DNA of 33,697 nucleotides from a virus (Duplodnaviria; Caudoviricetes), in IMG/VR virus record IMGVR_UViG_3300030109_001481, positions 1-33,697 of that record. One strand, 5' to 3'. Both the position numbers and the translations under genes were made by a program. This document shows positions 1 to 33,697 of the stretch, piece by piece (the stretch's first letter is position 1; each line of letters opens with the position of its first letter). Below the pieces are notes generated by a model. That model worked only from the letters and a program-made list of their open reading frames with translations. It ran no database searches and had not been told where the DNA came from.

Positions 1-3000
1 TTTAGTCATGTAGATTTAAATGCAACAGGAACTTTCTGTTTAGCTCAGAATAATTCTGGTAAAACAATTATGAATGCCGCAAGTGGTCAGCCTATTGCTT
101 TTAAAATAGCTAATACTGATAAAGCCATAATTTCTTCATCTGGATATTTTGGAGTCGGAACTGAAATCCCAGATACAGAAATTCATATAAAACAAGGGAA
201 TGCTGGTTCTGTAGACACTCACGCTAACTATATAATGACTCTAGAAGGAGGTGGTGATACATTACTACAATTTCAGACCCCCAATGATGCTACAGATGTA
301 GGAATTATTTGGGGTGACCCAGATGATAAAGATGTTGGAGCATTTAAATATGACCATGATACAGATTCTTTAAAGTTTACAGTTGGTGCAAGGCAGTCTC
401 TGGTTCTTGAATCTGGTTTAACTACAACAGGCTCAGTACTAACATTATCCACAGCAGAAACAACCATTGTTGCAAATGATGTTTTAGGTAAGATTAATTT
501 TAAAGCACCTCTGGAGGCAAGTGGAACAGATGCAATATTAGTAGGGGCATCAATTCATGCTTTAGCTACTGGTACATTTGCGGCAGATAATAATGCAACT
601 GATTTAATATTCAGCACAGGAGCAAGTGAAACAGCTACCGAAAAAGCCAGAATTTCATCTGATGGAAAATTAGGAATTGGAACTGGTGGAAATGTAGATG
701 AACTTCTCCATGTCCAAAATGATTCTAATAATGCTGTAATAAAAATAGAAGCTGGAAGTTCTGGAAATGGTGCAAGATTACAACTGACTTCAGCGACTAA
801 TGACACTGGCGATATAAACTTTGGTGATTCTGGAGATACAAATATAGGTCGCATCAAATATGACCATACTGACAATTATTTAGCAATCCATACTAATGAT
901 ACTGAAAAATTAAGAATTACATCCGGTGGTGTTTTAATGGTTGGTCATACGAGTCCCACCACCACAGGAAATTTAACTGCTCAAGCACAGATTGAAACAA
1001 CTGGTGCAAGTGCAGCATTGGCAATAACCAGAAACACGAATGGTGCTTATGGAAGTTATTTGGTTTTAGCTAAGTCAAGGTCTGGTGCAGTTGGTGGCAA
1101 TACAATACTACAGGATGGTGATGAGATAGGCACAGTTAGATTTTCTGGAGCAGATGGCACTGATAGAGCAAGTCATGCCGCAGAAATTAGTGGTCAAGTT
1201 GATGGTACACCAGGAAGCAATGATATGCCCGGAAGATTGGTCTTTAAAACAACTGCTGATGGTGCAAGTTCAGCTACAGAAAGAATGAGAATTGATTCTA
1301 CTGGTAATGTCGGAATTGGAGTTACTCCAAATTCTACTACATCTTTGCATATTGCTCAAAATGCATCTGCTAAAACTGAATATATTAGGCTAGATAATAC
1401 TGGAGGAGTAGACTATTCTTTTCATCTAGGTTATTCTACAACAGATAATTTCTTAATGGCTGATAGTGCTGGAAGAGTTTTATTCACAGCTCATAGCGGA
1501 AATGCTGGGGTGGGAACAACCTCACCTAGACAAATGTTTCATGCTTATGATGCAACTGCCGATATTGTAGGTCTATTTCAAAGTGGTGATGCGGGTGCTT
1601 ATGTATCTTTCAGGGATAATTCTACAGGGGCTGATGACAATGTATTTATTGGAGCTAGTGGTGCAAACTTAGCTTTCTATCAAGCTAATGGTTTAAAAAT
1701 GCTTATTGATGCCAATTCCAAAATTTCACTAAGTAATAATGATGCTAATACTTCTAATACAGTTTTTGGTAAAAGTGCTTTTAATGATGGAGGTTCAGAT
1801 GTAGGTGCTGATTATAATGTAGCTATTGGCGAACTGGCTATGGGAACTGGTACTATTGCAGCAGCTCAAAGTAATACTGCTATCGGTTACAGGGCATTGA
1901 CAGATATTACTGGTAACGGTGGAGGTGGTGATGATAATGTTGCAATAGGATATGATGCGGCTACAAACTTGACAACTGGTAGAAGTAGTGTGGCGATTGG
2001 TAAGGATAGTTTGGCTACAGCAACAACTACTAATTATTGTGTTGCAATCGGAGAAAGTGCTGGAACAGCAATAAATCACGCTGATGGTGCTGGTCAGGTT
2101 TTGATAGGATACCAAGCTGGTCATGACCTTACTTCAGGCGCTGGTAATACAATGATTGGAAAATTTGCGGGAGATAAAACTGTTTCAAACAGTTATAATA
2201 CTTATGTGGGTTTTGAGAACGGAAGAGGCGATGGATTTTCAAATGTTGCTATAGGCGCACAATCTTTTGACCATACAGGTGGACAAGCTGATAAATGTGT
2301 AATTATTGGAACACAAGCTATGAGAGGTGACCACCAGTTAGGAGCAGATGAAACTGTTGCAGTTGGGGCGGCATCAATGGTGGCTCTTGTATCAGGGGAG
2401 CATAATGTAGCTGTTGGATATAGAGCACAAAATGCGAATACCGATTATGATAATAACACAGCAGTTGGTCACGATTCTTTGCTTTATGCAAATGGAACTA
2501 ATAATACTGCAATAGGACGAGAATCTGGTTGGAGTATAAACACTGGTTCGCAAAATACTTTTCTTGGGGCATCTTCTGGTGGAGGGGCTTCGGGTTCATC
2601 TAATAGAATAACAAGTAATAATAATACTGGTATTGGTTATAAATCACTATATGATGCTAAAACAGATGCTGAACAAAACACAGCAGTTGGTTCAGTAAGT
2701 GGTGAAAATATTACGACTGGAGATAATAACACTCTTGTGGGATTCCAATGTGGTGATGCTCTTACCACTACAACTCATAATACAGCTATAGGTGTTGATG
2801 CTCTTGGTGGTTCAAGCCTTGTAAGTAATGCAACTGTAATAGGTTCTCAGGCTTGTGATGCGGCTGTAACTGCTGATGCAGATGGTGTTGTTGCTGTGGG
2901 GTATGCTGCTCTTGGTGCTTTAACAAGTGGAGGAGGGAATACGGCTGTAGGATACCAAACGGGATTAGCGATTGATACTCAAACTAATTGCACATTAGTT

Positions 3001-3789
3001 GGTTATCAAGCGGGTATGGATATTACTCATGACAATGCTGGTAGCTCAACTTTAATTGGATATAAAGCGGGAACAGATATTACAGAGGGTAAACAGAATA
3101 CTGCTATAGGTGCAAATGCTCTTTTAGATTGTACAACAGCAGATTATAATGTTGCTATAGGCAATAATGCTTTAGAAAATGTTAGCACTGGTTCAAATAA
3201 TATGAATACAGGCATAGGATATGCATCTGCGGCAACACTTACTACCGGTACAAACAATACACTTTTAGGAACACAAGCAGATGTTAGTGCTAGTGGGGCG
3301 ACTGGTCAGATAGCAATAGGAAAAGGTGTTGCTTGTACTGGTGATAATATAGCGACATTAGGTATTGGTTCTAATACTGCATCTTTAGGGCTAGATGGTA
3401 GCGACACATCTTGGGCGGCGGCATCATCTGATGAAAGATTAAAAGAAAATATAGAAACATCATCCGCTGGTCTTGGATTTATTAATGACTTACGACCAGT
3501 GACATATAATTGGAAAAAAGCAAAAGATGTTGATAAAAGTTTGCCACAATATGAAGATTCTGATAACCCAGTATTAGGCAAAGAATATGGTGAAACTTTA
3601 CATGGATTTATTGCTCAAGAAGTAAAACAAGCAATAGACAGTCACGAAGAACTGGCTGATGGTTTTAAAATGTGGAAGTTGAAAGATGATGGAACTCAGA
3701 CTGTCGCTGATGGAAACCTTCTTCCAATACTTGTAAAGGCAGTTCAAGAATTAAGTGCAAAAGTAGAAGAATTAGAAAGTAAAGGATAA
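1..3789 (+). CDS. Long tail/virion fibre protein, C-terminal part, with intramolecular chaperone (peptidase S74) domain; 5' truncated by the window edge
   Basis: Frame is open from base 1. Contains repeated 'ERMRIDSTGNVGIG/EKLRITSGG' fibre modules, many 'NTAVG/NVAIG' repeats (YadA-head-like), and a C-terminal 'SSDERLKENI...LRPVTYNWK...HGFIAQEV...LVKAVQEL' S74 signature. Confidence 0.9.
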   Translation, partial: FSHVDLNATGTFCLAQNNSGKTIMNAASGQPIAFKIANTDKAIISSSGYFGVGTEIPDTEIHIKQGNAGSVDTHANYIMTLEGGGDTLLQFQTPNDATDVGIIWGDPDDKDVGAFKYDHDTDSLKFTVGARQSLVLESGLTTTGSVLTLSTAETTIVANDVLGKINFKAPLEASGTDAILVGASIHALATGTFAADNNATDLIFSTGASETATEKARISSDGKLGIGTGGNVDELLHVQNDSNNAVIKIEAGSSGNGARLQLTSATNDTGDINFGDSGDTNIGRIKYDHTDNYLAIHTNDTEKLRITSGGVLMVGHTSPTTTGNLTAQAQIETTGASAALAITRNTNGAYGSYLVLAKSRSGAVGGNTILQDGDEIGTVRFSGADGTDRASHAAEISGQVDGTPGSNDMPGRLVFKTTADGASSATERMRIDSTGNVGIGVTPNSTTSLHIAQNASAKTEYIRLDNTGGVDYSFHLGYSTTDNFLMADSAGRVLFTAHSGNAGVGTTSPRQMFHAYDATADIVGLFQSGDAGAYVSFRDNSTGADDNVFIGASGANLAFYQANGLKMLIDANSKISLSNNDANTSNTVFGKSAFNDGGSDVGADYNVAIGELAMGTGTIAAAQSNTAIGYRALTDITGNGGGGDDNVAIGYDAATNLTTGRSSVAIGKDSLATATTTNYCVAIGESAGTAINHADGAGQVLIGYQAGHDLTSGAGNTMIGKFAGDKTVSNSYNTYVGFENGRGDGFSNVAIGAQSFDHTGGQADKCVIIGTQAMRGDHQLGADETVAVGAASMVALVSGEHNVAVGYRAQNANTDYDNNTAVGHDSLLYANGTNNTAIGRESGWSINTGSQNTFLGASSGGGASGSSNRITSNNNTGIGYKSLYDAKTDAEQNTAVGSVSGENITTGDNNTLVGFQCGDALTTTTHNTAIGVDALGGSSLVSNATVIGSQACDAAVTADADGVVAVGYAALGALTSGGGNTAVGYQTGLAIDTQTNCTLVGYQAGMDITHDNAGSSTLIGYKAGTDITEGKQNTAIGANALLDCTTADYNVAIGNNALENVSTGSNNMNTGIGYASAATLTTGTNNTLLGTQADVSASGATGQIAIGKGVACTGDNIATLGIGSNTASLGLDGSDTSWAAASSDERLKENIETSSAGLGFINDLRPVTYNWKKAKDVDKSLPQYEDSDNPVLGKEYGETLHGFIAQEVKQAIDSHEELADGFKMWKLKDDGTQTVADGNLLPILVKAVQELSAKVEELESKG

Positions 3790-20540: not shown

Positions 20541-21351
20541 AAGATTTATAGACACAAAGATATGGGATAAAGCATGGTTCAGGAAACTATCAACCAAGAA
20601 TAAATTAGTATGGATTTACTTACTTGGTAAATGTGACCATGCTGGAATATGGGATGCTGACTGGGAACTTGCAGAATTTATAATTGGTGATACAGTTACT
20701 TATGATGAGCTGCCAGATGTTATCAAGGATAAAATGGAATATATAAAGGGTGAGGAGCAATATTTTATCCCCTCATTTATTGATTTTCAATATGGTGAAC
20801 TTAAAGCAAATTCTAAACCTCACATGAGTGTTCTTAAAAGATTAAATGAAAAACATTTAAAAATAAGGGGTTTAGAAAGGGTTGTCATAACCCCTAAAGA
20901 TAAAGATAAATCTAAAGATAAAAAAAAAGTTAAAATAAAAGAAATAAAAGAACGAGAAAAAGAATTTATGGAAGAATGTAAAAGGGTTAATGAAAAAGTT
21001 GGATTAGATGGGGTTGAATTATTAAAATTTGTAGACTATTTTACTGAACCAACAACTTCTGGGAAGAAAATGTTATTTGAAACTAAACCTACTTGGAGTT
21101 TATCCAGAAGGCTGCACAGGTGGAAAAACAGTGATTTTTCAGTAAAAAGTAAAGATGATAAAACAAAAAAGAAACAGGATAGAATCAGGGAGTGGAAAAA
21201 ACAGTTTCGCCATGTTGAAGAAACTGGAGTATATATTGCATATTGTGTTAAGTGTGGGGGCAAACAGATGCCGAATACTGCATACCAATTAAGCCAGGGT
21301 TCAACTTGTTGCAGCTCAGAGTATGTTGGAACAAAGCCTAGCAATGTCTAA
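20533..21351 (+). CDS. Replication initiator protein (lambdoid-type)
   Basis: N-terminal 'KRFIDTKIWDKAWFRKL..KLVWIYLL..CDHAG', KDKDK linker, C-terminal 'FVDYFTE....KMLFE...TW.L.RRL..W', then a Cys motif. Confidence 0.75.
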   Translation: MAKRFIDTKIWDKAWFRKLSTKNKLVWIYLLGKCDHAGIWDADWELAEFIIGDTVTYDELPDVIKDKMEYIKGEEQYFIPSFIDFQYGELKANSKPHMSVLKRLNEKHLKIRGLERVVITPKDKDKSKDKKKVKIKEIKEREKEFMEECKRVNEKVGLDGVELLKFVDYFTEPTTSGKKMLFETKPTWSLSRRLHRWKNSDFSVKSKDDKTKKKQDRIREWKKQFRHVEETGVYIAYCVKCGGKQMPNTAYQLSQGSTCCSSEYVGTKPSNV

Positions 21352-21625
21352 GGAAGGTGAGCATATTATTGAATATATACTTAGGGTAACTCAACCAGAA
21401 AACCTTAGAGTTTCTATTAAAAATAAAAAAAGATACAATTCTTATGAAAATAGAAAACATAAAATTGATGATAATATTTTTTATTGTATTAAATGCAAAC
21501 ACACATGGAGTATTGTGCCAGGCTGGGTAGATAGGGCAAAGTGGAGAAAATACCCTGAAGGTAATATGCCAACATACAAGAAAAAAAGAAAAATTTGCAT
21601 ACCTTGCAGGAGTTTAAATGAATAA
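21344..21625 (+). CDS. Hypothetical Zn-finger protein
   Basis: CIKC...CIPC; likely start 21344. Confidence 0.6.
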   Translation: MSKEGEHIIEYILRVTQPENLRVSIKNKKRYNSYENRKHKIDDNIFYCIKCKHTWSIVPGWVDRAKWRKYPEGNMPTYKKKRKICIPCRSLNE

Positions 21626-21833
21626 CCTTGAATTATTTGATATGCCACCTAAAGAAAAAAATGGCGAAATTGAAAATACAAACATTGAACATTTAGTCAT
21701 AGCATTTGACCAGGGCAAAAAAAAAGAAATGATAAGGATGTTAGAAAAATTATGTGATGAAAACAATATAAAGGTTTATGCAGATTTTCTGTATAAAATA
21801 GTTAAGGAGGAGTATGAAAAAATTAATAGTTGA
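21618..21833 (+). CDS. Small accessory protein of the TET/JBP cassette
   Basis: AGGAG SD; overlaps the start of the dioxygenase gene; 71 aa. Confidence 0.55.
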   Translation: MNNLELFDMPPKEKNGEIENTNIEHLVIAFDQGKKKEMIRMLEKLCDENNIKVYADFLYKIVKEEYEKINS

Positions 21834-22722
21834 TTTTAAAAAACAACCAGAGCAGATAAAACATATAAAAGATACTTTCGCAAAAAAAACAGACTACGAC
21901 CATATAATAGATTACGACTGTTCAGTTCATAATAAACTTGGAAAACCTGTTTTGTTTTTTGTTAAAAACTATATTGAACCAAGTATATTGAAAAATGCCT
22001 ATGAATCAATGAAAAACGCAGCATCACCAACAGATAACAGGGGTTCGGCTAGTGGTGGGGAAAGAAAATTCTCAAAAGATAAAAATGGGAAATTGACAAA
22101 AATAACAAGGACTTATATTCCTGGTACTGATACCCTATTAAAAGTGAATAGCGGTGTAGCTGGTTATTTTGATAGGGCAGCTCATTTAGATTTCTGCAGA
22201 ACAACTGCTTACAACCAAAAACATTTAGATAGGTTTCAAAATGCTTTACCTTTAATAAAAACAGTTGATAAGGGTTTTAAAGAATTAGTTCCTGAAAGGT
22301 ATAAAAAACAAAAAGAAATGATAAAAGCGACCGATCCAAATTACAGAATTGAAAATACTGCATTTACAACGATTACAATCAATAAAGACTATAGAACAGC
22401 CTATCATTATGATGACGGTGACTATCCATTAGGGTTTGGTAATTTGGTTGCGTATTGTAGGGATATTGAACCGATGTACCTGGTGCTGCCGAGGTATGGG
22501 GTAGCAGTACATCTAGATACGAATGATTTATTATTGGTAGATGTACACGAATTACATGGGAACACAGAATTCATACCTAATGGGGCAAACCCTGTTCGCC
22601 TTTCTTTTGTAATGTATTACAGGGAAAATATGTGGAAATGCTTACCCCCTAAAGAAGAATTGAAAAGAATACAAATGAACCAAAGAACAACAGCCCAAAA
22701 ATATTTGAGGGGGGAAAAATGA
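21814..22722 (+). CDS. TET/JBP-family 2-oxoglutarate/Fe(II) dioxygenase (5-methylpyrimidine oxygenase)
   Basis: 'SGVAGYFDR...CRTTAY', 'FTTITIN..YRTAYHYDDGD' (HxD), distal 'HGNT', 2OG-binding 'RLSFVMYYRENM'; SD AAGGAGG. Confidence 0.9.
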   Translation: MKKLIVDFKKQPEQIKHIKDTFAKKTDYDHIIDYDCSVHNKLGKPVLFFVKNYIEPSILKNAYESMKNAASPTDNRGSASGGERKFSKDKNGKLTKITRTYIPGTDTLLKVNSGVAGYFDRAAHLDFCRTTAYNQKHLDRFQNALPLIKTVDKGFKELVPERYKKQKEMIKATDPNYRIENTAFTTITINKDYRTAYHYDDGDYPLGFGNLVAYCRDIEPMYLVLPRYGVAVHLDTNDLLLVDVHELHGNTEFIPNGANPVRLSFVMYYRENMWKCLPPKEELKRIQMNQRTTAQKYLRGEK

Positions 22723-23450
22723 AATATCAAGAATATTGGATTGGTGTTATATCTAGCAATAGACCTGGAAATATAAATAAAATGCACCAAATTCTTAAAT
22801 TTGAACCGACTTGGTATGTAGGCAAAAATGAAAACCAAACGTATAAAGAATCTAAAAACATTGTTGAATCTGGGGGGTTATGTGAGAGTAGAAATGCTTT
22901 ACTTAAAGAAGCATTCAATAGGGATTTAATATGCGTTCAATTAAGTGATGACCTGTATAATTTAAAAATAGCTAAAAATAAAAAAGAAAAAGCAGACATT
23001 GAATTTTTTGATGCTTTAGAGGTTATAAAAAATTCTATGCTTAATAATGGTTCTTATTATGGGGGCTGTGCTCCTACCGACAACGCTTTTTATTTTAACG
23101 AAGAAAAACCAATCTCTTTTGATAAGTTTATTGTCGGGGATTTTATAATGGTAAGACCTTGCAATGTTTTTTTTGATGAAAGTTTAAAATTAAAAGAAGA
23201 TTACGATTATACTTTGCAGCATTTAAAAAGGTATAATAAGGTTTCTAGGTGTAATAATATCCTAGCTTCTTTCAAACATAGAACGAATAAAGGTGGTGCA
23301 GTTGATGTAAGAACAAGTGAATTAGAACAAAAAACAATAAAACAACTCCATGATAAATGGGGGGAACAAATAGTTTTAAACCCGAGGCGTGAAAATGAAA
23401 TATTAATGAAATATAAAAAAGGTTTTAATAATCAAGAAGGATTATTTTAA
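22719..23450 (+). CDS. TET-associated glycosyltransferase (GT-A, GREB1/JGT-like)
   Basis: N-terminal 'ISSNRP', 'SRNALL', 'QLSDDL', 'FDESLKLKEDYDYTLQHL', 'NKGG'; ATGA-coupled to the dioxygenase. Confidence 0.85.
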   Translation: MKYQEYWIGVISSNRPGNINKMHQILKFEPTWYVGKNENQTYKESKNIVESGGLCESRNALLKEAFNRDLICVQLSDDLYNLKIAKNKKEKADIEFFDALEVIKNSMLNNGSYYGGCAPTDNAFYFNEEKPISFDKFIVGDFIMVRPCNVFFDESLKLKEDYDYTLQHLKRYNKVSRCNNILASFKHRTNKGGAVDVRTSELEQKTIKQLHDKWGEQIVLNPRRENEILMKYKKGFNNQEGLF

Positions 23451-24160
23451 TGCAAGGTTCATTATTCTTTAATAGAAATAATTGCAATTATGTTCATCAA
23501 ATATATGGCTTGTATGGTGATAATAAAAAAATGAGTGAATTATTTAAAAAAAGCTGTTTAGAATTTAAAAAATGGTCTAAAAAAAATAATTATAAATACA
23601 AACTATGGGGGAAAAAAGAATGCGATTCTTTAATTAAAGAATTCCCTAAATATATAGAAATGTATGAAAAATCAAGATATCCAATAATGAAATGTGATAT
23701 TGCTAGGCTGTGTATTCTCTATAAGTATGGAGGACTGTATAGCGACTTAGATTGTTTCCCTAAAATTAAAGAAATGAAAAAAAGCGATTTAGTTCTCACA
23801 ATTGATAAAACAAGTTCAGGAACAAAAAGGAAAAATGGAAATGAGGTTGTTACGAATGAAATAATACAGGCATCAAAAAACAATGTTTTTTTATTAGGCT
23901 TTTTAGATTACATAAAAACACAAATAAAAGAAAAAGAAAAAATTGAAATTTATAATGTAAGAAAAGCCAGGTTTGTTCTCCATACGACTGGTCCTTATGC
24001 TTTGCAACGCTTTTTAAAAAAAAATGATTGTGAATATGATTTGTACAGAACTAATCAATTAGAATTTGAAAAAAATTGGAAATATGTAGGGCTAGGCAAG
24101 ACTGATGATGTGGACTTTATAGCTCATGATTCATTGTCTTGGTATGGTTGCTTAAAATAA
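23450..24160 (+). CDS. GT32/OCH1-like DxD glycosyltransferase
   Basis: 'VHQIY', 'YKLW', 'KCDIARLCILYKYGGLYSDLD', 'TTGPYAL', 'H...SW'; TAATG-coupled. Confidence 0.88.
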   Translation: MQGSLFFNRNNCNYVHQIYGLYGDNKKMSELFKKSCLEFKKWSKKNNYKYKLWGKKECDSLIKEFPKYIEMYEKSRYPIMKCDIARLCILYKYGGLYSDLDCFPKIKEMKKSDLVLTIDKTSSGTKRKNGNEVVTNEIIQASKNNVFLLGFLDYIKTQIKEKEKIEIYNVRKARFVLHTTGPYALQRFLKKNDCEYDLYRTNQLEFEKNWKYVGLGKTDDVDFIAHDSLSWYGCLK

Positions 24161-24189
24161 AAAACATTATACCCTTAAGAAGCAGTTAA

Positions 24190-24244
24190 TAAAGTGTTTG
24201 CATATATAATAATTATGTATTAATATTGGTTATGAATAAAATAA
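24190..24244 (+). promoter_or_regulatory. Early promoter P2
   Basis: TTGCAT (24198-203), 17 bp, TAATAT (24221-26); two blocks identical to P1 at identical spacing. Confidence 0.7.
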
Positions 24245-24258
24245 CAAAAGGGTTAAAA

Positions 24259-24483
24259 ATGAATATAATTACTATAGTAAATAAAATGTGCCTTCATAAT
24301 AATTTTATGCCTTCAGAATTATATACTTTTAATGGTGGTGATGTGTATGTTCGCTATGAAGTAAAAGAAAAAGTAGAGTTTGATAAATTATTAAAAAAGT
24401 TATCGGATTTATGGCTGCTAGGTGTTGTCAATTACAGTGTTATTTCTTGGAGTAATTGTGAAGTAAGAATCAAGGGGGCTTAA
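24259..24483 (+). CDS. Hypothetical early protein
   Basis: First gene after P2; start 24259 or 24232. Confidence 0.6.
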   Translation: MNIITIVNKMCLHNNFMPSELYTFNGGDVYVRYEVKEKVEFDKLLKKLSDLWLLGVVNYSVISWSNCEVRIKGA

Positions 24484-24668
24484 TGATGATAACATTTGGT
24501 GAAATGTGTGATAATTTAATTGATTATGCAATAGCAACTCAAAAAGAAATACAGTTAATAACTAGCATTAATGGTTCTTCAGTTGATACCCTTAATCAAA
24601 TATTGTATTCTAGAGTAGGATATAGGGATTGGAAGCAGTACATGGAATGTGAAGGTGGGCTAGAATGA
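24483..24668 (+). CDS. Hypothetical early protein, paralog of 17351-17578
   Basis: Shared DY.IAT..EIQL.T.ING...GYR motif. Confidence 0.75.
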   Translation: MMITFGEMCDNLIDYAIATQKEIQLITSINGSSVDTLNQILYSRVGYRDWKQYMECEGGLE

Positions 24669-25135
24669 ATATTTTTGTATTAAGCGAAAACCCAATAAGG
24701 GCAGCGCAAATGCAACATAATAAACATGTCGTAAAAATGGTGTTAGAATCAACCCAGATGTTGTGCAGTGCTTTTGAACCTAAACATGAAGCACCTTACA
24801 AAAGGGCATATTTTAATCACCCCTGTACAGTATGGGTAAGAACAAGTGCAGATAATTATAAATGGATGTTATTACACGCTATCGCATTAGCAACAGAATA
24901 TACTTTTAGGTATAAAAAAACTCATGCTTCTGAAAAAGTTATCGCCTGGTGTTGGAATAATTATGAAAAGTTTATAGACTTCCCTGAAAAAGGTTTTACT
25001 AAAAGACCACTAGCTATGCCTAAAGAATATAAAACTGATGATGCAGTAGAATCTTATATTAATTACTACTTAGGGGAAAAACTTACAAGTGCTAAATGGT
25101 CAATTAGAAAAAAACCTAATATATTTAACCTTTAA
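24665..25135 (+). CDS. Pyrimidine-dimer DNA glycosylase/endonuclease V-like protein
   Basis: 'MNIFVL...KHVVKMVLESTQML...YK.AYFNHPCTVWVR.S..NY.W......LATEYTFRY.KTH...PLAMP.EYK..DAVESY..YY'. Confidence 0.8.
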   Translation: MNIFVLSENPIRAAQMQHNKHVVKMVLESTQMLCSAFEPKHEAPYKRAYFNHPCTVWVRTSADNYKWMLLHAIALATEYTFRYKKTHASEKVIAWCWNNYEKFIDFPEKGFTKRPLAMPKEYKTDDAVESYINYYLGEKLTSAKWSIRKKPNIFNL

Positions 25136-25153
25136 ATAACCCTATAATAACCC

Positions 25154-25197
25154 TTGCACTATTAAAAAACCCTTATTATATTTGTTTGTGAATAAAA
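25154..25197 (+). promoter_or_regulatory. Early promoter P3
   Basis: TTGCAC (25154-59), 17 bp, TATATT (25177-82), then TGAATAAAA at the same offset as in P1 and P2. Confidence 0.7.
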
Positions 25198-25219
25198 CAA
25201 TAAATAAGGAGTTAAAAAC

Positions 25220-25435
25220 ATGAAAAAAGAAAATAAACAACTAGAAAAAAAGACTGCCACTGTTTCTGTATGGAAAAACGGAGCATTTATTGAAGGTAGG
25301 GAATTAACAGAAGCACAATACAACCATGAAAAACAATGCCAAGCAGATGACGAAGATAGACATATTGGTATTATGAATGCTGAAAAAATAAATATTGATT
25401 TAGTTAATGACTTTATGGAATCATTTGATATTTAA
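25220..25435 (+). CDS. Hypothetical protein in a stand-alone transcription unit
   Basis: TAAGGAG SD; lies between P3 and a terminator. Confidence 0.7.
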   Translation: MKKENKQLEKKTATVSVWKNGAFIEGRELTEAQYNHEKQCQADDEDRHIGIMNAEKINIDLVNDFMESFDI

Positions 25436-25457
25436 TACTAACCACTAAACCACTAAA

Positions 25458-25495
25458 AAAAGCCTCTATTGATTTAGGGGCTTTTGTGTATTTTA
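25458..25495 (+). terminator. Rho-independent terminator (possibly bidirectional)
   Basis: AAAAGCCTCTA-TTGATT-TAGGGGCTTTT hairpin flanked by A and T tracts. Confidence 0.75.
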
Positions 25496-25547
25496 TAAAA
25501 CACCTCTTTTAATATAAATTACAAACTATATTTTAAAGGAGTTAATT

Positions 25548-25634
25548 ATGCCTAGAGGCAAAGGAACATATGGAAAAAAGGTTGGCAGACCTAAAAAGAA
25601 AAAATCAAAAATGAAAAAGCGTGGAAAAAAATAA
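25548..25634 (+). CDS. Very basic 28-aa peptide (not in ORF track)
   Basis: AAGGAG SD; MPRGKGTYGKKVGRPKKKKSKMKKRGKK. Confidence 0.7.
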   Translation: MPRGKGTYGKKVGRPKKKKSKMKKRGKK

Positions 25635-25800
25635 AGAAGGTGTTGTATTAACAACTGAATTAGTTGGCATTAAAAATTTAAAGACAACAGGCAACTATCG
25701 CTTAGAATTTGATGTGTATGAAATAGACACAAGTAAAGTAAAAGAATTAATTGATAAGCTCAATAAGGCTTATGTTATGGCATTAGTAGAATATGATTAA
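25621..25800 (+). CDS. Small hypothetical protein (59 aa, GTG start)
   Basis: Open frame overlapping both neighbours: ...IKNLKTTGNYRLEFDVYEID...VEYD. Confidence 0.55.
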   Translation: MEKNKEGVVLTTELVGIKNLKTTGNYRLEFDVYEIDTSKVKELIDKLNKAYVMALVEYD

Positions 25801-26038
25801 TAATAGTGGCTATAATGGTTTCTTTAATAAAATGAGGAAACAAGCAGATAAGATGGAAAAAGAAAGGGCAGCATTTATTAAAGGTCTAAGCACTAAAGCA
25901 ATTAATGAAAGATTATTAGGTATAAAGAAATTAGAAAAAAACAAACAATCAGAATTTGAAAAAAAAGTTCTAAGGCTAACCAGGGAAGAACTGAATGAAG
26001 AAATAGCTAGAAGGTATGATAAAAAAACAAACAGCTAA
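25793..26038 (+). CDS. Hypothetical helical protein
   Basis: 81-aa ORF overlapping its neighbours. Confidence 0.55.
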   Translation: MINNSGYNGFFNKMRKQADKMEKERAAFIKGLSTKAINERLLGIKKLEKNKQSEFEKKVLRLTREELNEEIARRYDKKTNS

Positions 26039-31981: not shown

Positions 31982-32551
31982 ATGGCAACTAAATTTCACA
32001 CTTATTCAACTCAAGAAGCTACAAACATTATTGCAAGAAGGGCAGCAGTCAGGGTTACTCCCACAATTACTGGGGTACAATATGCAAATAATGATGTATT
32101 ATTCACCACAACTGAAATTCCAAATGCAGTTGCATATAATGGTGGGGCTTCAGAATTAAAAAACATTACAATCAATTCTAAATCTGCTAGTTTATTTGAC
32201 TGCATATTATGGTTTTTTCAGGCTAACCAAAGTGCAGGAACAGTGAATGGTGCTTGGAATATGAGTGATAGTGACTTTGCAAGTGCTAAGAACCTGGGAT
32301 GTATATACATAGACGGAGACAACTTACAGCAAAACCCAGGTGGCGGAAGAGTCTATACAATTATGCAGGGATATAAAGCATTCCCAAGTGCTACAAAAAC
32401 AAACCCTCAACTTCCATTAATACTTCAAGCTGAAGATGATTCAACTTCTGTTTATATGGCAGCAAAAATACAGAGTGAAGATGACCCAGGAAATACAACT
32501 CCCTCATTTAGTGTTGGGGATATAGAGATTGTTCTTGGGATTAATTACTAG
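31982..32551 (+). CDS. Putative virion structural protein (beta-rich)
   Basis: AGGAG SD; lies between the capsid and fibre genes. Confidence 0.55.
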   Translation: MATKFHTYSTQEATNIIARRAAVRVTPTITGVQYANNDVLFTTTEIPNAVAYNGGASELKNITINSKSASLFDCILWFFQANQSAGTVNGAWNMSDSDFASAKNLGCIYIDGDNLQQNPGGGRVYTIMQGYKAFPSATKTNPQLPLILQAEDDSTSVYMAAKIQSEDDPGNTTPSFSVGDIEIVLGINY

Positions 32552-32559
32552 GAGATATT

Positions 32560-32904
32560 ATGGCAAAATTACATAAGAGGTCAGTACAAGAATCTTTAAA
32601 TGCAACAGTCGGTGGTGAATGGACAGTTAATTCAGCAGGAACAGCAGGATCAAGTGCTGATGTAACAAATACAACTCATTTAGCTTTAGCAACTATGACA
32701 TCCACATTAGGGGTTTATAGTGCAGTAGAAATCTATTTTAATTTCACTATAACAACAACAGATGTCACAGCAGCAAATGATTTAGTGATACCAAAAAACA
32801 CATTAACATTCTTAACTGTTCCAAGAGGGTTAGGCAATACTGTTTATTTCAATTATAACTCTACCAGTACAACAACTGGTGCAGTTAAAACTGTGGAGAT
32901 ATAA
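32560..32904 (+). CDS. Putative virion structural protein (Thr-rich)
   Basis: AGGAG SD; N-terminus 'MAKLHKRSVQES.N' resembles 'MATKFHTYSTQEA.N' of the upstream gene. Confidence 0.55.
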   Translation: MAKLHKRSVQESLNATVGGEWTVNSAGTAGSSADVTNTTHLALATMTSTLGVYSAVEIYFNFTITTTDVTAANDLVIPKNTLTFLTVPRGLGNTVYFNYNSTSTTTGAVKTVEI

Positions 32905-33697
32905 TGCAAAGTTCAATGTTAAAAGCAATAATTGAGGACTTTGGTAATGGTGGCACAATAGACGGCGACCTGGTAATTACTGGAGACCTTCAGGTCGATG
33001 GTGGTGGTTCTTTATCGTTTGATGAAATCATAGAGGGTACACAAGTAATAGATGTTACTAGCACAGAAGCCTTATTAGTCCGTAAAAACGGTGACGGTGG
33101 AGATGTTCTGACTATAGACACTACTAATGCAAGGATGCTATTCGGTGGTGAAATTAGGCTTTATGATAAAGATAGTGATGGAACATTTGGTGGTCGGATT
33201 AGGTACGATAATTCAGATAACGAATTACGAATAGAGGCAAATGAAGTATCTGGCGATGATATAATTATTAAGGCTAATGATGCAATATCGTTGGAAGATT
33301 CTTCTAATTACCTTTTATATCTTGATGGTGGCAATGCTGGAATAAACACTTCTGCCTTTTCAATATACGACAATATTGGAACTGGTAATACTGGTAATCA
33401 ATTACTCATTTCGTCTGCCGCTGGTGGTGACCCAGCAACAATTCAAATTGCAAAACACTCTGGAAGTGATAACATGGGTAATGAAACGATTGGAAAACTT
33501 AGTTTCCTTGCTTATCCGGCAACAACTGCTGTTGCAACTGCTGAAATTGTAGCATCTACTCCATCTGGTGATACTGATGCCTCAGAAGGTGTTTTAGATT
33601 TTTATACAAATACTGGTAGCACCTCTACCAAACGAATGACGATTGATAATTCTGGAAATGTCGCAATTGCTCCAGATACAGATGTTAGCGCAGAGAT
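32904..33697 (+). CDS. Fibre protein, N-terminal part (runs off the right edge; not in ORF track)
   Basis: TAATG-coupled ATG at 32904; open to the end: MQSSMLKAIIEDFGNGGTIDGDLVITGDL...KRMTIDNSGNVAIAPDTDVSAE; same module type as 1-3789. Confidence 0.85.
   Translation, partial: MQSSMLKAIIEDFGNGGTIDGDLVITGDLQVDGGGSLSFDEIIEGTQVIDVTSTEALLVRKNGDGGDVLTIDTTNARMLFGGEIRLYDKDSDGTFGGRIRYDNSDNELRIEANEVSGDDIIIKANDAISLEDSSNYLLYLDGGNAGINTSAFSIYDNIGTGNTGNQLLISSAAGGDPATIQIAKHSGSDNMGNETIGKLSFLAYPATTAVATAEIVASTPSGDTDASEGVLDFYTNTGSTSTKRMTIDNSGNVAIAPDTDVSAE

Follow-up and report, generated by a model that had tools for sequence, protein, structure and literature searches.

A small ParB-CTD homologue without CTPase domain as candidate partner of a predicted thymine dioxygenase in a marine phage

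We analysed the 33.7-kb marine phage record IMGVR_UViG_3300030109_001481 over its full length of 33,697 nucleotides, referred to as the window below. Every called gene is located on the plus strand, and the gene content includes tail, lysis, replication-initiation, terminase and capsid genes. The topology of the record is linear and its CheckV completeness is 100%. The analysis centred on four overlapping genes and on the tail-fibre gene interrupted by the contig break:

21618..21833, plus strand: 71-aa acidic protein, ParB-CTD homologue without CTPase domain, predicted ribbon-helix-helix (RHH) protein and candidate minimal activator (HHalign, AF2)
21814..22722, plus strand: TET/JBP (5mYOX) Fe(II)/2OG dioxygenase of clade C1 type, 302 aa, predicted thymine dioxygenase (PF12851, trees, fold)
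22719..23450, plus strand: TET-associated GT-A glycosyltransferase (TAGT) with an R..SDD..EDY motif, 4-nt overlap with the dioxygenase gene
23450..24160, plus strand: second glycosyltransferase (GT), PF04488 (E 2.3e-11), DLD motif, 1-nt overlap
32904..33697, plus strand: 5' part of the tail-fibre gene, continuing as 1-3789; the contig breaks inside it, which locates the assembly gap

The assembly gap is unlikely to hide a gene, because both open ends of the contig are parts of one tail-fibre gene. The two parts (from 32904 onwards and up to 3789) correspond to a single gene of 722-1327 aa in five relatives, counting solely loci matched by at least three of five probes. As 1526 tail-fibre codons are already within the window, and a second contig with the same small protein measures 33,870 bp, little is likely to be missing. 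Closing the gap, as proposed in the original prediction, was tried with public contigs aligned on both ends, but none spans it and the gap stayed unbridged. Elsewhere, contigs of two runs carry 279 other letters in place of 31989-32557 (567 bp), which encodes a 189-aa protein after the capsid gene, and this is a variable gene. A pyrimidine-dimer glycosylase-like gene (PF03013) lies downstream of the four genes at 24665-25135; relatives without the cassette carry a PF03013 gene too.

The ORF at 21814-22722, originally predicted to encode a TET/JBP enzyme, is intact and was confirmed as such by its match to Tet_JBP (PF12851, E 1.2e-20), its catalytic residues and its fold. It retains the iron ligands H198-x-D200 and H248 as well as R262 and R76, and the iron and 2OG residues are invariant in 42/42 aligned homologues. 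The AF2 model (pLDDT 90.8) had CcTet, TET2 and NgTET1 as best structural matches. Two subclasses of phage T-dioxygenases, C1 and C2, were described by O'Toole 2026 (PMC13229309): enzymes of C2 are active alone, whereas those of C1 need a ParB-like partner composed of NBD and CTD, and a long insert confers ParB independence. The variable insert of the window enzyme comprises 34 aa, compared to 32 in the 5mYOX176 type and 58-60 in C2, and a C-terminal tail extends 26 aa beyond the last conserved Cys, compared to 0-3 aa in C2 enzymes. Judged from the alignment, the combination of short insert and C-terminal extension is the architecture of ParB-dependent enzymes.

Clade placement was consistent with this architecture. 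Our reference sets were C1 enzymes with a full ParB, C2 enzymes, and MTase-linked relatives of the Melnitz phage gene; by eye, the ParB of L114-116 matches ParB176 and that of L111-112 matches ParB185, and L278 of the C2 set bears the accession of 5mYOX98. In a quick IQ-TREE phylogeny of 69 selected rows (SH-aLRT support, clade A left out), the window enzyme nested in a 44-row ParB-linked C1 group together with 176- and 185-type enzymes (support 94), apart from the C2 and the MTase-linked groups (support 100 each). The comparison with MTase-linked homologues suggested by the original prediction thus placed the enzyme on the ParB-linked side. Identities were 37% to the 5mYOX176 type and 39% to the 185 type, as against 28% to 5mYOX98 (28-29% to C2) and 22% to the MTase-linked Melnitz enzyme. 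One 85%-identical dioxygenase sits on a phage-like contig in a Saprospiraceae MAG bin, which may be mis-binning. A further two enzymes (L293, L294) of 385 aa with a 90-aa insert and C2-like motifs branch near the lineage with small partners and have no partner themselves; their contigs are probably giant-virus contigs in bacterial bins.

Genes of the 5hmU-kinase and amino-acid-transferase (AADT) families, which act on 5hmU-DNA (PMC8989533), follow the dioxygenase in many related loci. All five nearest enzymes are followed by a P-loop kinase gene, in three cases also by an AADT-cluster gene. Among the 33 window-clade loci, 23 carry kinase/AADT genes, 8 a GT (one with FkbM) and 2 FkbM only. The 371-aa members of the AADT cluster have no Pfam match of their own and owe their label to BLAST clustering with an ADDT-positive protein. 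An FkbM-type methyltransferase was seen as tailoring gene after the dioxygenase in L024, L025, L016 and L141, with either the small partner or a full ParB.

The original prediction had found no C5-MTase ORF in the window, which was borne out by every search made. A six-frame motif scan gave neither FxGxG nor PC motifs and only chance ENV-type matches, Pfam found no C5-MTase among 51 plus-strand ORFs of at least 60 aa, the six-frame PF00145 search was negative for the window (0/1) with positive controls in 9/14 genomes, and BLAST with two phage C5-MTs and one N6/N4-MT matched nothing in the window. The likewise reported lack of a thymidylate-synthase-like gene and of a DNA polymerase also held: six-frame profile searches of the window returned no PF00303, PF01555, PF00476 or PF00136, and C5-MTase, N6/N4-MTase, thymidylate synthase and family A/B polymerase were all without a match in its six frames. 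The possibility of an MTase hidden in the gap or among unnamed ORFs was rejected on the basis of motif, six-frame and BLAST searches together with tail-fibre continuity. Across related records searched whole, C5-MTase was found in 0/16 of the window clade, nine of them at least 90% complete, and in 2/10 of the second clade with small partners; a C5-MT-like gene was detected in the cassette-bearing loci L010 (a further window-clade locus, by BLAST) and L034, L036, L041, L045, L057 and L068 (second clade, several by BLAST). C5-MTase was present in 55/55 Melnitz-type loci with at least 1.5 kb upstream.

The assumption behind the original prediction, namely that phage TETs typically have a neighbouring MTase, did not hold, as it reflects the selection of contigs in Burke 2021 (PMC8256090), which were chosen for having a C5-MT. 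An absent methyltransferase is the norm for such pathways and not an oddity, because C5-MT was reported in only 6% of pathways (PMC13229309), and it would be dispensable since thymine itself carries the 5-methyl group. Thymine oxidation by phage enzymes is already known from Burke 2021, where TET89 oxidises about 10% of T, and from O'Toole 2026, and Lee 2021 (PMC8989533) inferred it for TET/JBP contigs that lack an MTase and carry kinase and AADT genes. Considering clade placement, the kinase/AADT neighbours and the absence of C5-MTase in the window clade, thymine is very probably the main substrate of the window enzyme. 5mC is a possible side substrate because 5mYOX176, likewise of clade C1, was reported to oxidise 5mC and T comparably in vitro (PMC13229309), but 5mC made by a host enzyme is likely a side substrate at most. 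Of the two options raised originally, the thymine target thus gained support from phylogeny, domain architecture and neighbours, while the host-methylation option was left without positive support. No base-recognition residue separating T from 5mC enzymes was established in the alignment comparison.

A footprint of the substrate in sequence composition was considered and rejected. CpG o/e of the window is 0.32, GATC occurs 6 times versus 64 expected, and GGCC, TCGA, AAGCTT, GAAGAC and ACCTGC are also strongly avoided. Avoidance of CpG, GATC and GGCC is common to cassette-free relatives and points to host restriction systems. The CpG depletion is not tied to the cassette, as it is equally strong in cassette-free relatives (median o/e 0.31 in 25 cassette-free relatives versus 0.48 in 8 with cassette, p=0.16). 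Small differences in TT, TC and CTG between the 8 cassette-bearing and the 25 cassette-free relatives (p<=0.002, 34 words) were set aside as confounded by region and kinship. The continued avoidance of GATC and other restriction-like sites is consistent with a partial, context-limited modification.

The new element at this locus is the 71-aa ORF directly upstream of the dioxygenase gene, which was absent from the original prediction. It overlaps the dioxygenase start by 20 nt and is preceded by a GGAG ribosome site. In the profile-profile comparison (HHalign) the small protein matched a ParB-CTD profile, built from the last 62 residues of 39 distinct ParBs, with a probability of 96.5%, E 9.9e-10 and a score of 47; the maximum score was 18 in 100 column shuffles and 14 in reversed controls. 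The ParB-CTD HMM also ranks small proteins above unrelated ORFs (among 6485). Full ParBs were not recovered at E 1e-4 with an HMM built solely from the small proteins, and the link to ParB required the CTD profile and the profile-profile test. The small partner corresponds to the ParB-CTD plus about 20 acidic residues and lacks the ParB CTPase domain, with neither ParB_N (PF02195) nor the cognate-NBD profile found anywhere in the window. Its gene is under purifying selection, with pN far below pS in 11/11 pairs. The protein has no consistent Pfam family match, and its family comprises 592 protein clusters at 90% identity in the protein database.

AF2 modelled the small protein as a monomer with an extended segment and two helices (pLDDT 86.6), compatible as a monomer with the beta-alpha-alpha arrangement of RHH proteins. 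The top Foldseek matches were Arc, NikR, CopG and ParG, and all but one of the 37 matches listed appear by name to be of RHH type, none of them at E<=0.001; RHH_1 and MetJ clusters are among the ESM neighbours scoring below 0.9. In Arc-type proteins three strand positions face the DNA, and RHH repressors have basic or polar DNA-reading residues there. These positions are occupied by H, V and A in the window protein and mostly by Y/T, I/Q/L and Y/A across the family, with neither K nor R among the common residues. The net charge is -4, which equals the family median (range -13 to 0, n=42).

The small partner strictly accompanies this dioxygenase lineage. For non-redundant enzymes of at least 250 aa with at least 300 bp upstream, it was found in front of 24/24 window-clade and 42/42 second-clade enzymes (66/66 of the lineage), and the domain together with an NBD preceded 41/43 ParB-linked enzymes, one more being masked by Ns and one without match. 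It was not found next to C2 (0/5), MTase-linked (0/48), T4-like (0/31) or giant-virus-like (0/2) enzymes (0/86), all of which have longer inserts. Only these negative groups are an independent test, because the domain profile was built from the same families that gave the positive counts. None of the 153 domain matches was located away from a dioxygenase gene. Of five soil C1 enzymes, one gave a domain match and four gave none. Our first two scans comprised 82 loci, the window among them; 4 were truncated on the 5' side, and the remaining 78 showed a small ORF in 74 cases, including L080 whose longer overlap missed the distance rule, and a full ParB in 4. In 32 phages whose terminase is 78-92% identical and whose slot is completely covered, the two genes are either both present (7) or both absent (25), and in none does one occur without the other. 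Downstream tailoring genes were swapped repeatedly and the small gene stayed. The cultured Nonlabens phage P12024L shows the order small gene, dioxygenase, TAGT (gp25-gp27).

Enzymes with a small partner form one branch (support 86), which suggests a single loss of the CTPase, although not firmly at this support. A ParB split into two genes with the NBD encoded elsewhere was rejected: the cognate-NBD profile had no match in the window and 10 records fetched whole (best E 0.14), and ParB_N was absent from 26 small-partner records as opposed to its presence in 7/10 full-ParB records. The one ParB_N gene found together with a small-partner cassette (L073:11120-11425) lies roughly 7 kb downstream of it, at the end of the contig. 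No longer protein holding the small domain was found among 7999 scored candidates, which is weak evidence.

Two further arrangements were observed among the loci collected. In two soil Acidobacteriota bins the CTD precedes a C1 enzyme as a fusion with an N-terminal part distinct from the ParB NBD (L291:5438-6001, E 1e-10; L290:5384-5965, E 0.002); L289, L292 and L295 resemble these fusions by eye only. A large group of 415-480-aa T4-like TET/JBP enzymes (L245-L284, L296-L299) has no ParB-type partner, combines inserts of some 110-130 aa with tails of roughly 70 aa, and occurs in the cultured phages Cr30, DLP6 and S-CBWM1, where its members are annotated as SNF2 proteins. These long-insert enzymes, with no small partner in 31 cases, may be among the inactive 'no ParB' C1 members included in O'Toole 2026 (PMC13229309).

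Downstream of the dioxygenase, the first GT (22719-23450) matched PF20691 below the curated cut-off (E 6.6e-4) and phrog_842 with E 4e-6; its motif was compared with Pyle et al. (bioRxiv 2023.12.21.572611). Its predicted role is to transfer a sugar onto 5hmU or onto a sugar already attached, and the second GT (23450-24160) is predicted to perform a second sugar-transfer step. With 20 GTs of the second clade with small partners the window TAGT shares 37-46% identity, and two of these 20 (L053, L060) score above the TAGT cut-off; it resembles none in its own clade, so that the sugar step was probably swapped in. A TAGT occupies the tailoring slot of 39/46 second-clade loci. Of the other loci fetched, only L053 has a homologue of the second GT, and there too it neighbours a TAGT within a dioxygenase cassette. 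The region between ORF 21323 and the small terminase gene (21323-26016) is a cargo hot spot which in relatives holds a dioxygenase cassette, a lone C5-MTase (L168, L198), an N6/N4-MTase-like gene (L199, where the left landmark of the slot had no match) or none of these.

Published experiments bear on the question whether a CTD alone might activate the enzyme. According to Dataset S7 of PMC13229309, the enzyme alone gave 0% 5hmU in the deletion set (4 replicates) and 0.9-1.0% in another set, full-length ParB176 gave 32-33%, ParB176 without NBD gave 2.0-2.1% (3 replicates) and ParB without CTD 0.2-0.6% (2 replicates). ParB176 without NBD accordingly keeps about 6% of the full activation (2% versus 32-33%), an approximately 16-fold cut. 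The main text of that study reverses the deletion values, with 0% for loss of the NBD and 2% for loss of the CTD. The Dataset S7 deletions lend modest support to activation by the CTD alone. The same study reports that ParB176 NTP-site mutants retain activity, that ParB activation is fairly cognate-specific and that no stable 5mYOX176-ParB176 complex was detected in vitro; it leaves open how ParB activates, whether the CTPase is functional or vestigial, and why some C1 enzymes are without ParB. For two enzymes located at contig starts, its SI notes a preceding CDS that is very short and unannotated, and interprets it as a truncated ParB. By eye, no member of the small-partner lineage was among the constructs in parts 1-3 of the 4 parts of Dataset S11. 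A stand-alone CTD partner, or the CTD as a ribbon-helix-helix, was not described in the literature searched, which covered O'Toole 2026 and its preprint as well as Kaljevic 2025 by search terms, with Iyer 2013 and O'Toole Fig. S4 as sources that may bear on it.

We propose, with a probability of roughly 55%, that 21618-24160, with its four overlapping genes, is a cassette for post-replicative modification of thymine with a small activator and a base-J-like product. The dioxygenase would oxidise thymine in DNA to 5-hydroxymethyluracil (5hmU), the 71-aa protein would bind the dioxygenase as a dimer and switch the enzyme on, and transfer of one or two sugars by the TAGT and the PF04488 GT would yield a residue resembling base J. 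Glycosylation of 5hmU by the two GTs appears likely from gene content, and activation of the dioxygenase by the small protein somewhat probable from homology and co-occurrence. Counting against such activation are the loss of most ParB176 activation without NBD, the failure to detect a stable 5mYOX176-ParB176 complex in vitro and the DNA-binding repressors among the top fold matches. Counting against the sugar step are the match of the window TAGT below the Pfam cut-off and the literature searched, in which no paper on a phage GT glycosylating 5hmU was found. As a generalisation we would put forward more tentatively that the working part of ParB activators is the small acidic RHH domain and not the CTPase, that a widespread CTPase-less phage lineage of 592 clusters without a Pfam family uses a protein of 70 residues alone, and that the product here might be a mono- or disaccharide analogue of base J.

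The small protein might instead act as a repressor by which the cassette regulates itself, or as a factor for DNA targeting, with thymine being oxidised unaided. Its fold matches (Arc, CopG, NikR, ParG), the RHH_1 and MetJ clusters among its ESM neighbours and its position as first gene of the cassette would fit this role, which we nevertheless regard as unlikely: the protein is acidic, common K/R residues are missing at the DNA-facing strand positions, the upstream ORF overlaps the small gene and leaves no intergenic operator space, and the dioxygenase lacks the long insert that confers ParB independence. It appears still less plausible, with only a slight chance, that the small protein is half an activator whose CTPase domain is supplied in trans by the host or by another gene. 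The 16-fold effect of NBD loss and the ParB_N gene of L073 would agree with a partner in trans, but the searches for ParB_N (window and 26 records, against 7/10 full-ParB records) and for the cognate NBD (window and 10 whole records) were negative, and the reported cognate specificity of activation (PMC13229309) argues against a borrowed domain.

With regard to substrate and product, a main substrate of 5mC provided by a host C5-methyltransferase, to be converted to glycosyl-5hmC, is improbable to a similar degree. TAGT-type GTs were characterised on 5hmC (PMC13390438 on TAGT; see also PMC12686479 on Carin-5), paired GTs add sugars to 5hmC (Pyle et al.), and both the 5mC oxidation by 5mYOX176 in vitro and the low CpG o/e of the window could be read in the same way. 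The CpG depletion is however matched in cassette-free relatives, the nearest enzymes feed 5hmU kinases, in L168 and L198 the same slot holds a C5-MT and no dioxygenase, and the enzyme is far from the MTase-linked enzymes in the tree. The GTs could also act on virion or cell-surface glycans, which would leave plain 5hmU as the final base; PF04488 is a broad family, there is a weak match to Caps_synth, and the second GT is rare with one other locus. We consider this rather unlikely, because the GTs hold the exact place of kinase/AADT genes in sister loci and overlap the dioxygenase gene, and a TAGT sits in that place in most second-clade loci (39/46).

Among known systems, the cassette is most similar to the C1 pairs 5mYOX176/ParB176 and 5mYOX185/ParB185 (PMC13229309), with which it shares clade, catalytic residues, short insert, C-terminal extension, an overlapping partner gene directly upstream, kinase/AADT genes in sister loci and the lack of C5-MT. 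It differs from these in a partner without CTPase domain, in tailoring by two GTs and in its identity of 37-39%. With C2 (5mYOX89, 97, 98, 105) it has in common the predicted conversion of T to 5hmU without a ParB CTPase, and C2 often has GT neighbours, but C2 enzymes have the 58-60-aa insert and lack both the C-terminal extension and a small partner (0/5), at 28-29% identity. Phage 5mC TETs (PMC8256090; bioRxiv 2023.12.21.572611) are similar in the succession of a dioxygenase and two GTs with a GT-A motif in the first; these belong to separate clades (A/B) and have a cognate MTase, which is missing here. For clade B, a PolB-MT-TET order as in the case of the Melnitz enzyme (22% identity) was described. 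Pyle et al. reported JGT as a structural match of phage GT-A enzymes.

The kinetoplastid base J pathway (JBP1/2 and JGT) resembles the predicted conversion of T to 5hmU and on to glycosyl-5hmU in DNA. JBP1 and JBP2 are characterised by J-binding and SWI2/SNF2 domains; neither was present in the window enzyme, which has a small partner protein instead. Base J itself is a beta-D-glucose on 5hmU, whereas the predicted window product may carry glucose or another sugar, and there might be two of them.

The cassette belongs to a class described between 2021 and 2026, and the CTPase-less partner is its new element. With the cultured phage P12024L (gp25-gp27), virion DNA can be examined directly for glycosylated 5hmU, of which no report was found in the literature searched. 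A required partner may be overlooked where Pfam-based screens classify cassettes as 'no ParB'. A natural lineage which retained the CTD alone is evolution's counterpart of the ParB deletion experiment; it points to the CTD as the functional core of these activators and provides a 71-aa object on which this can be tested.
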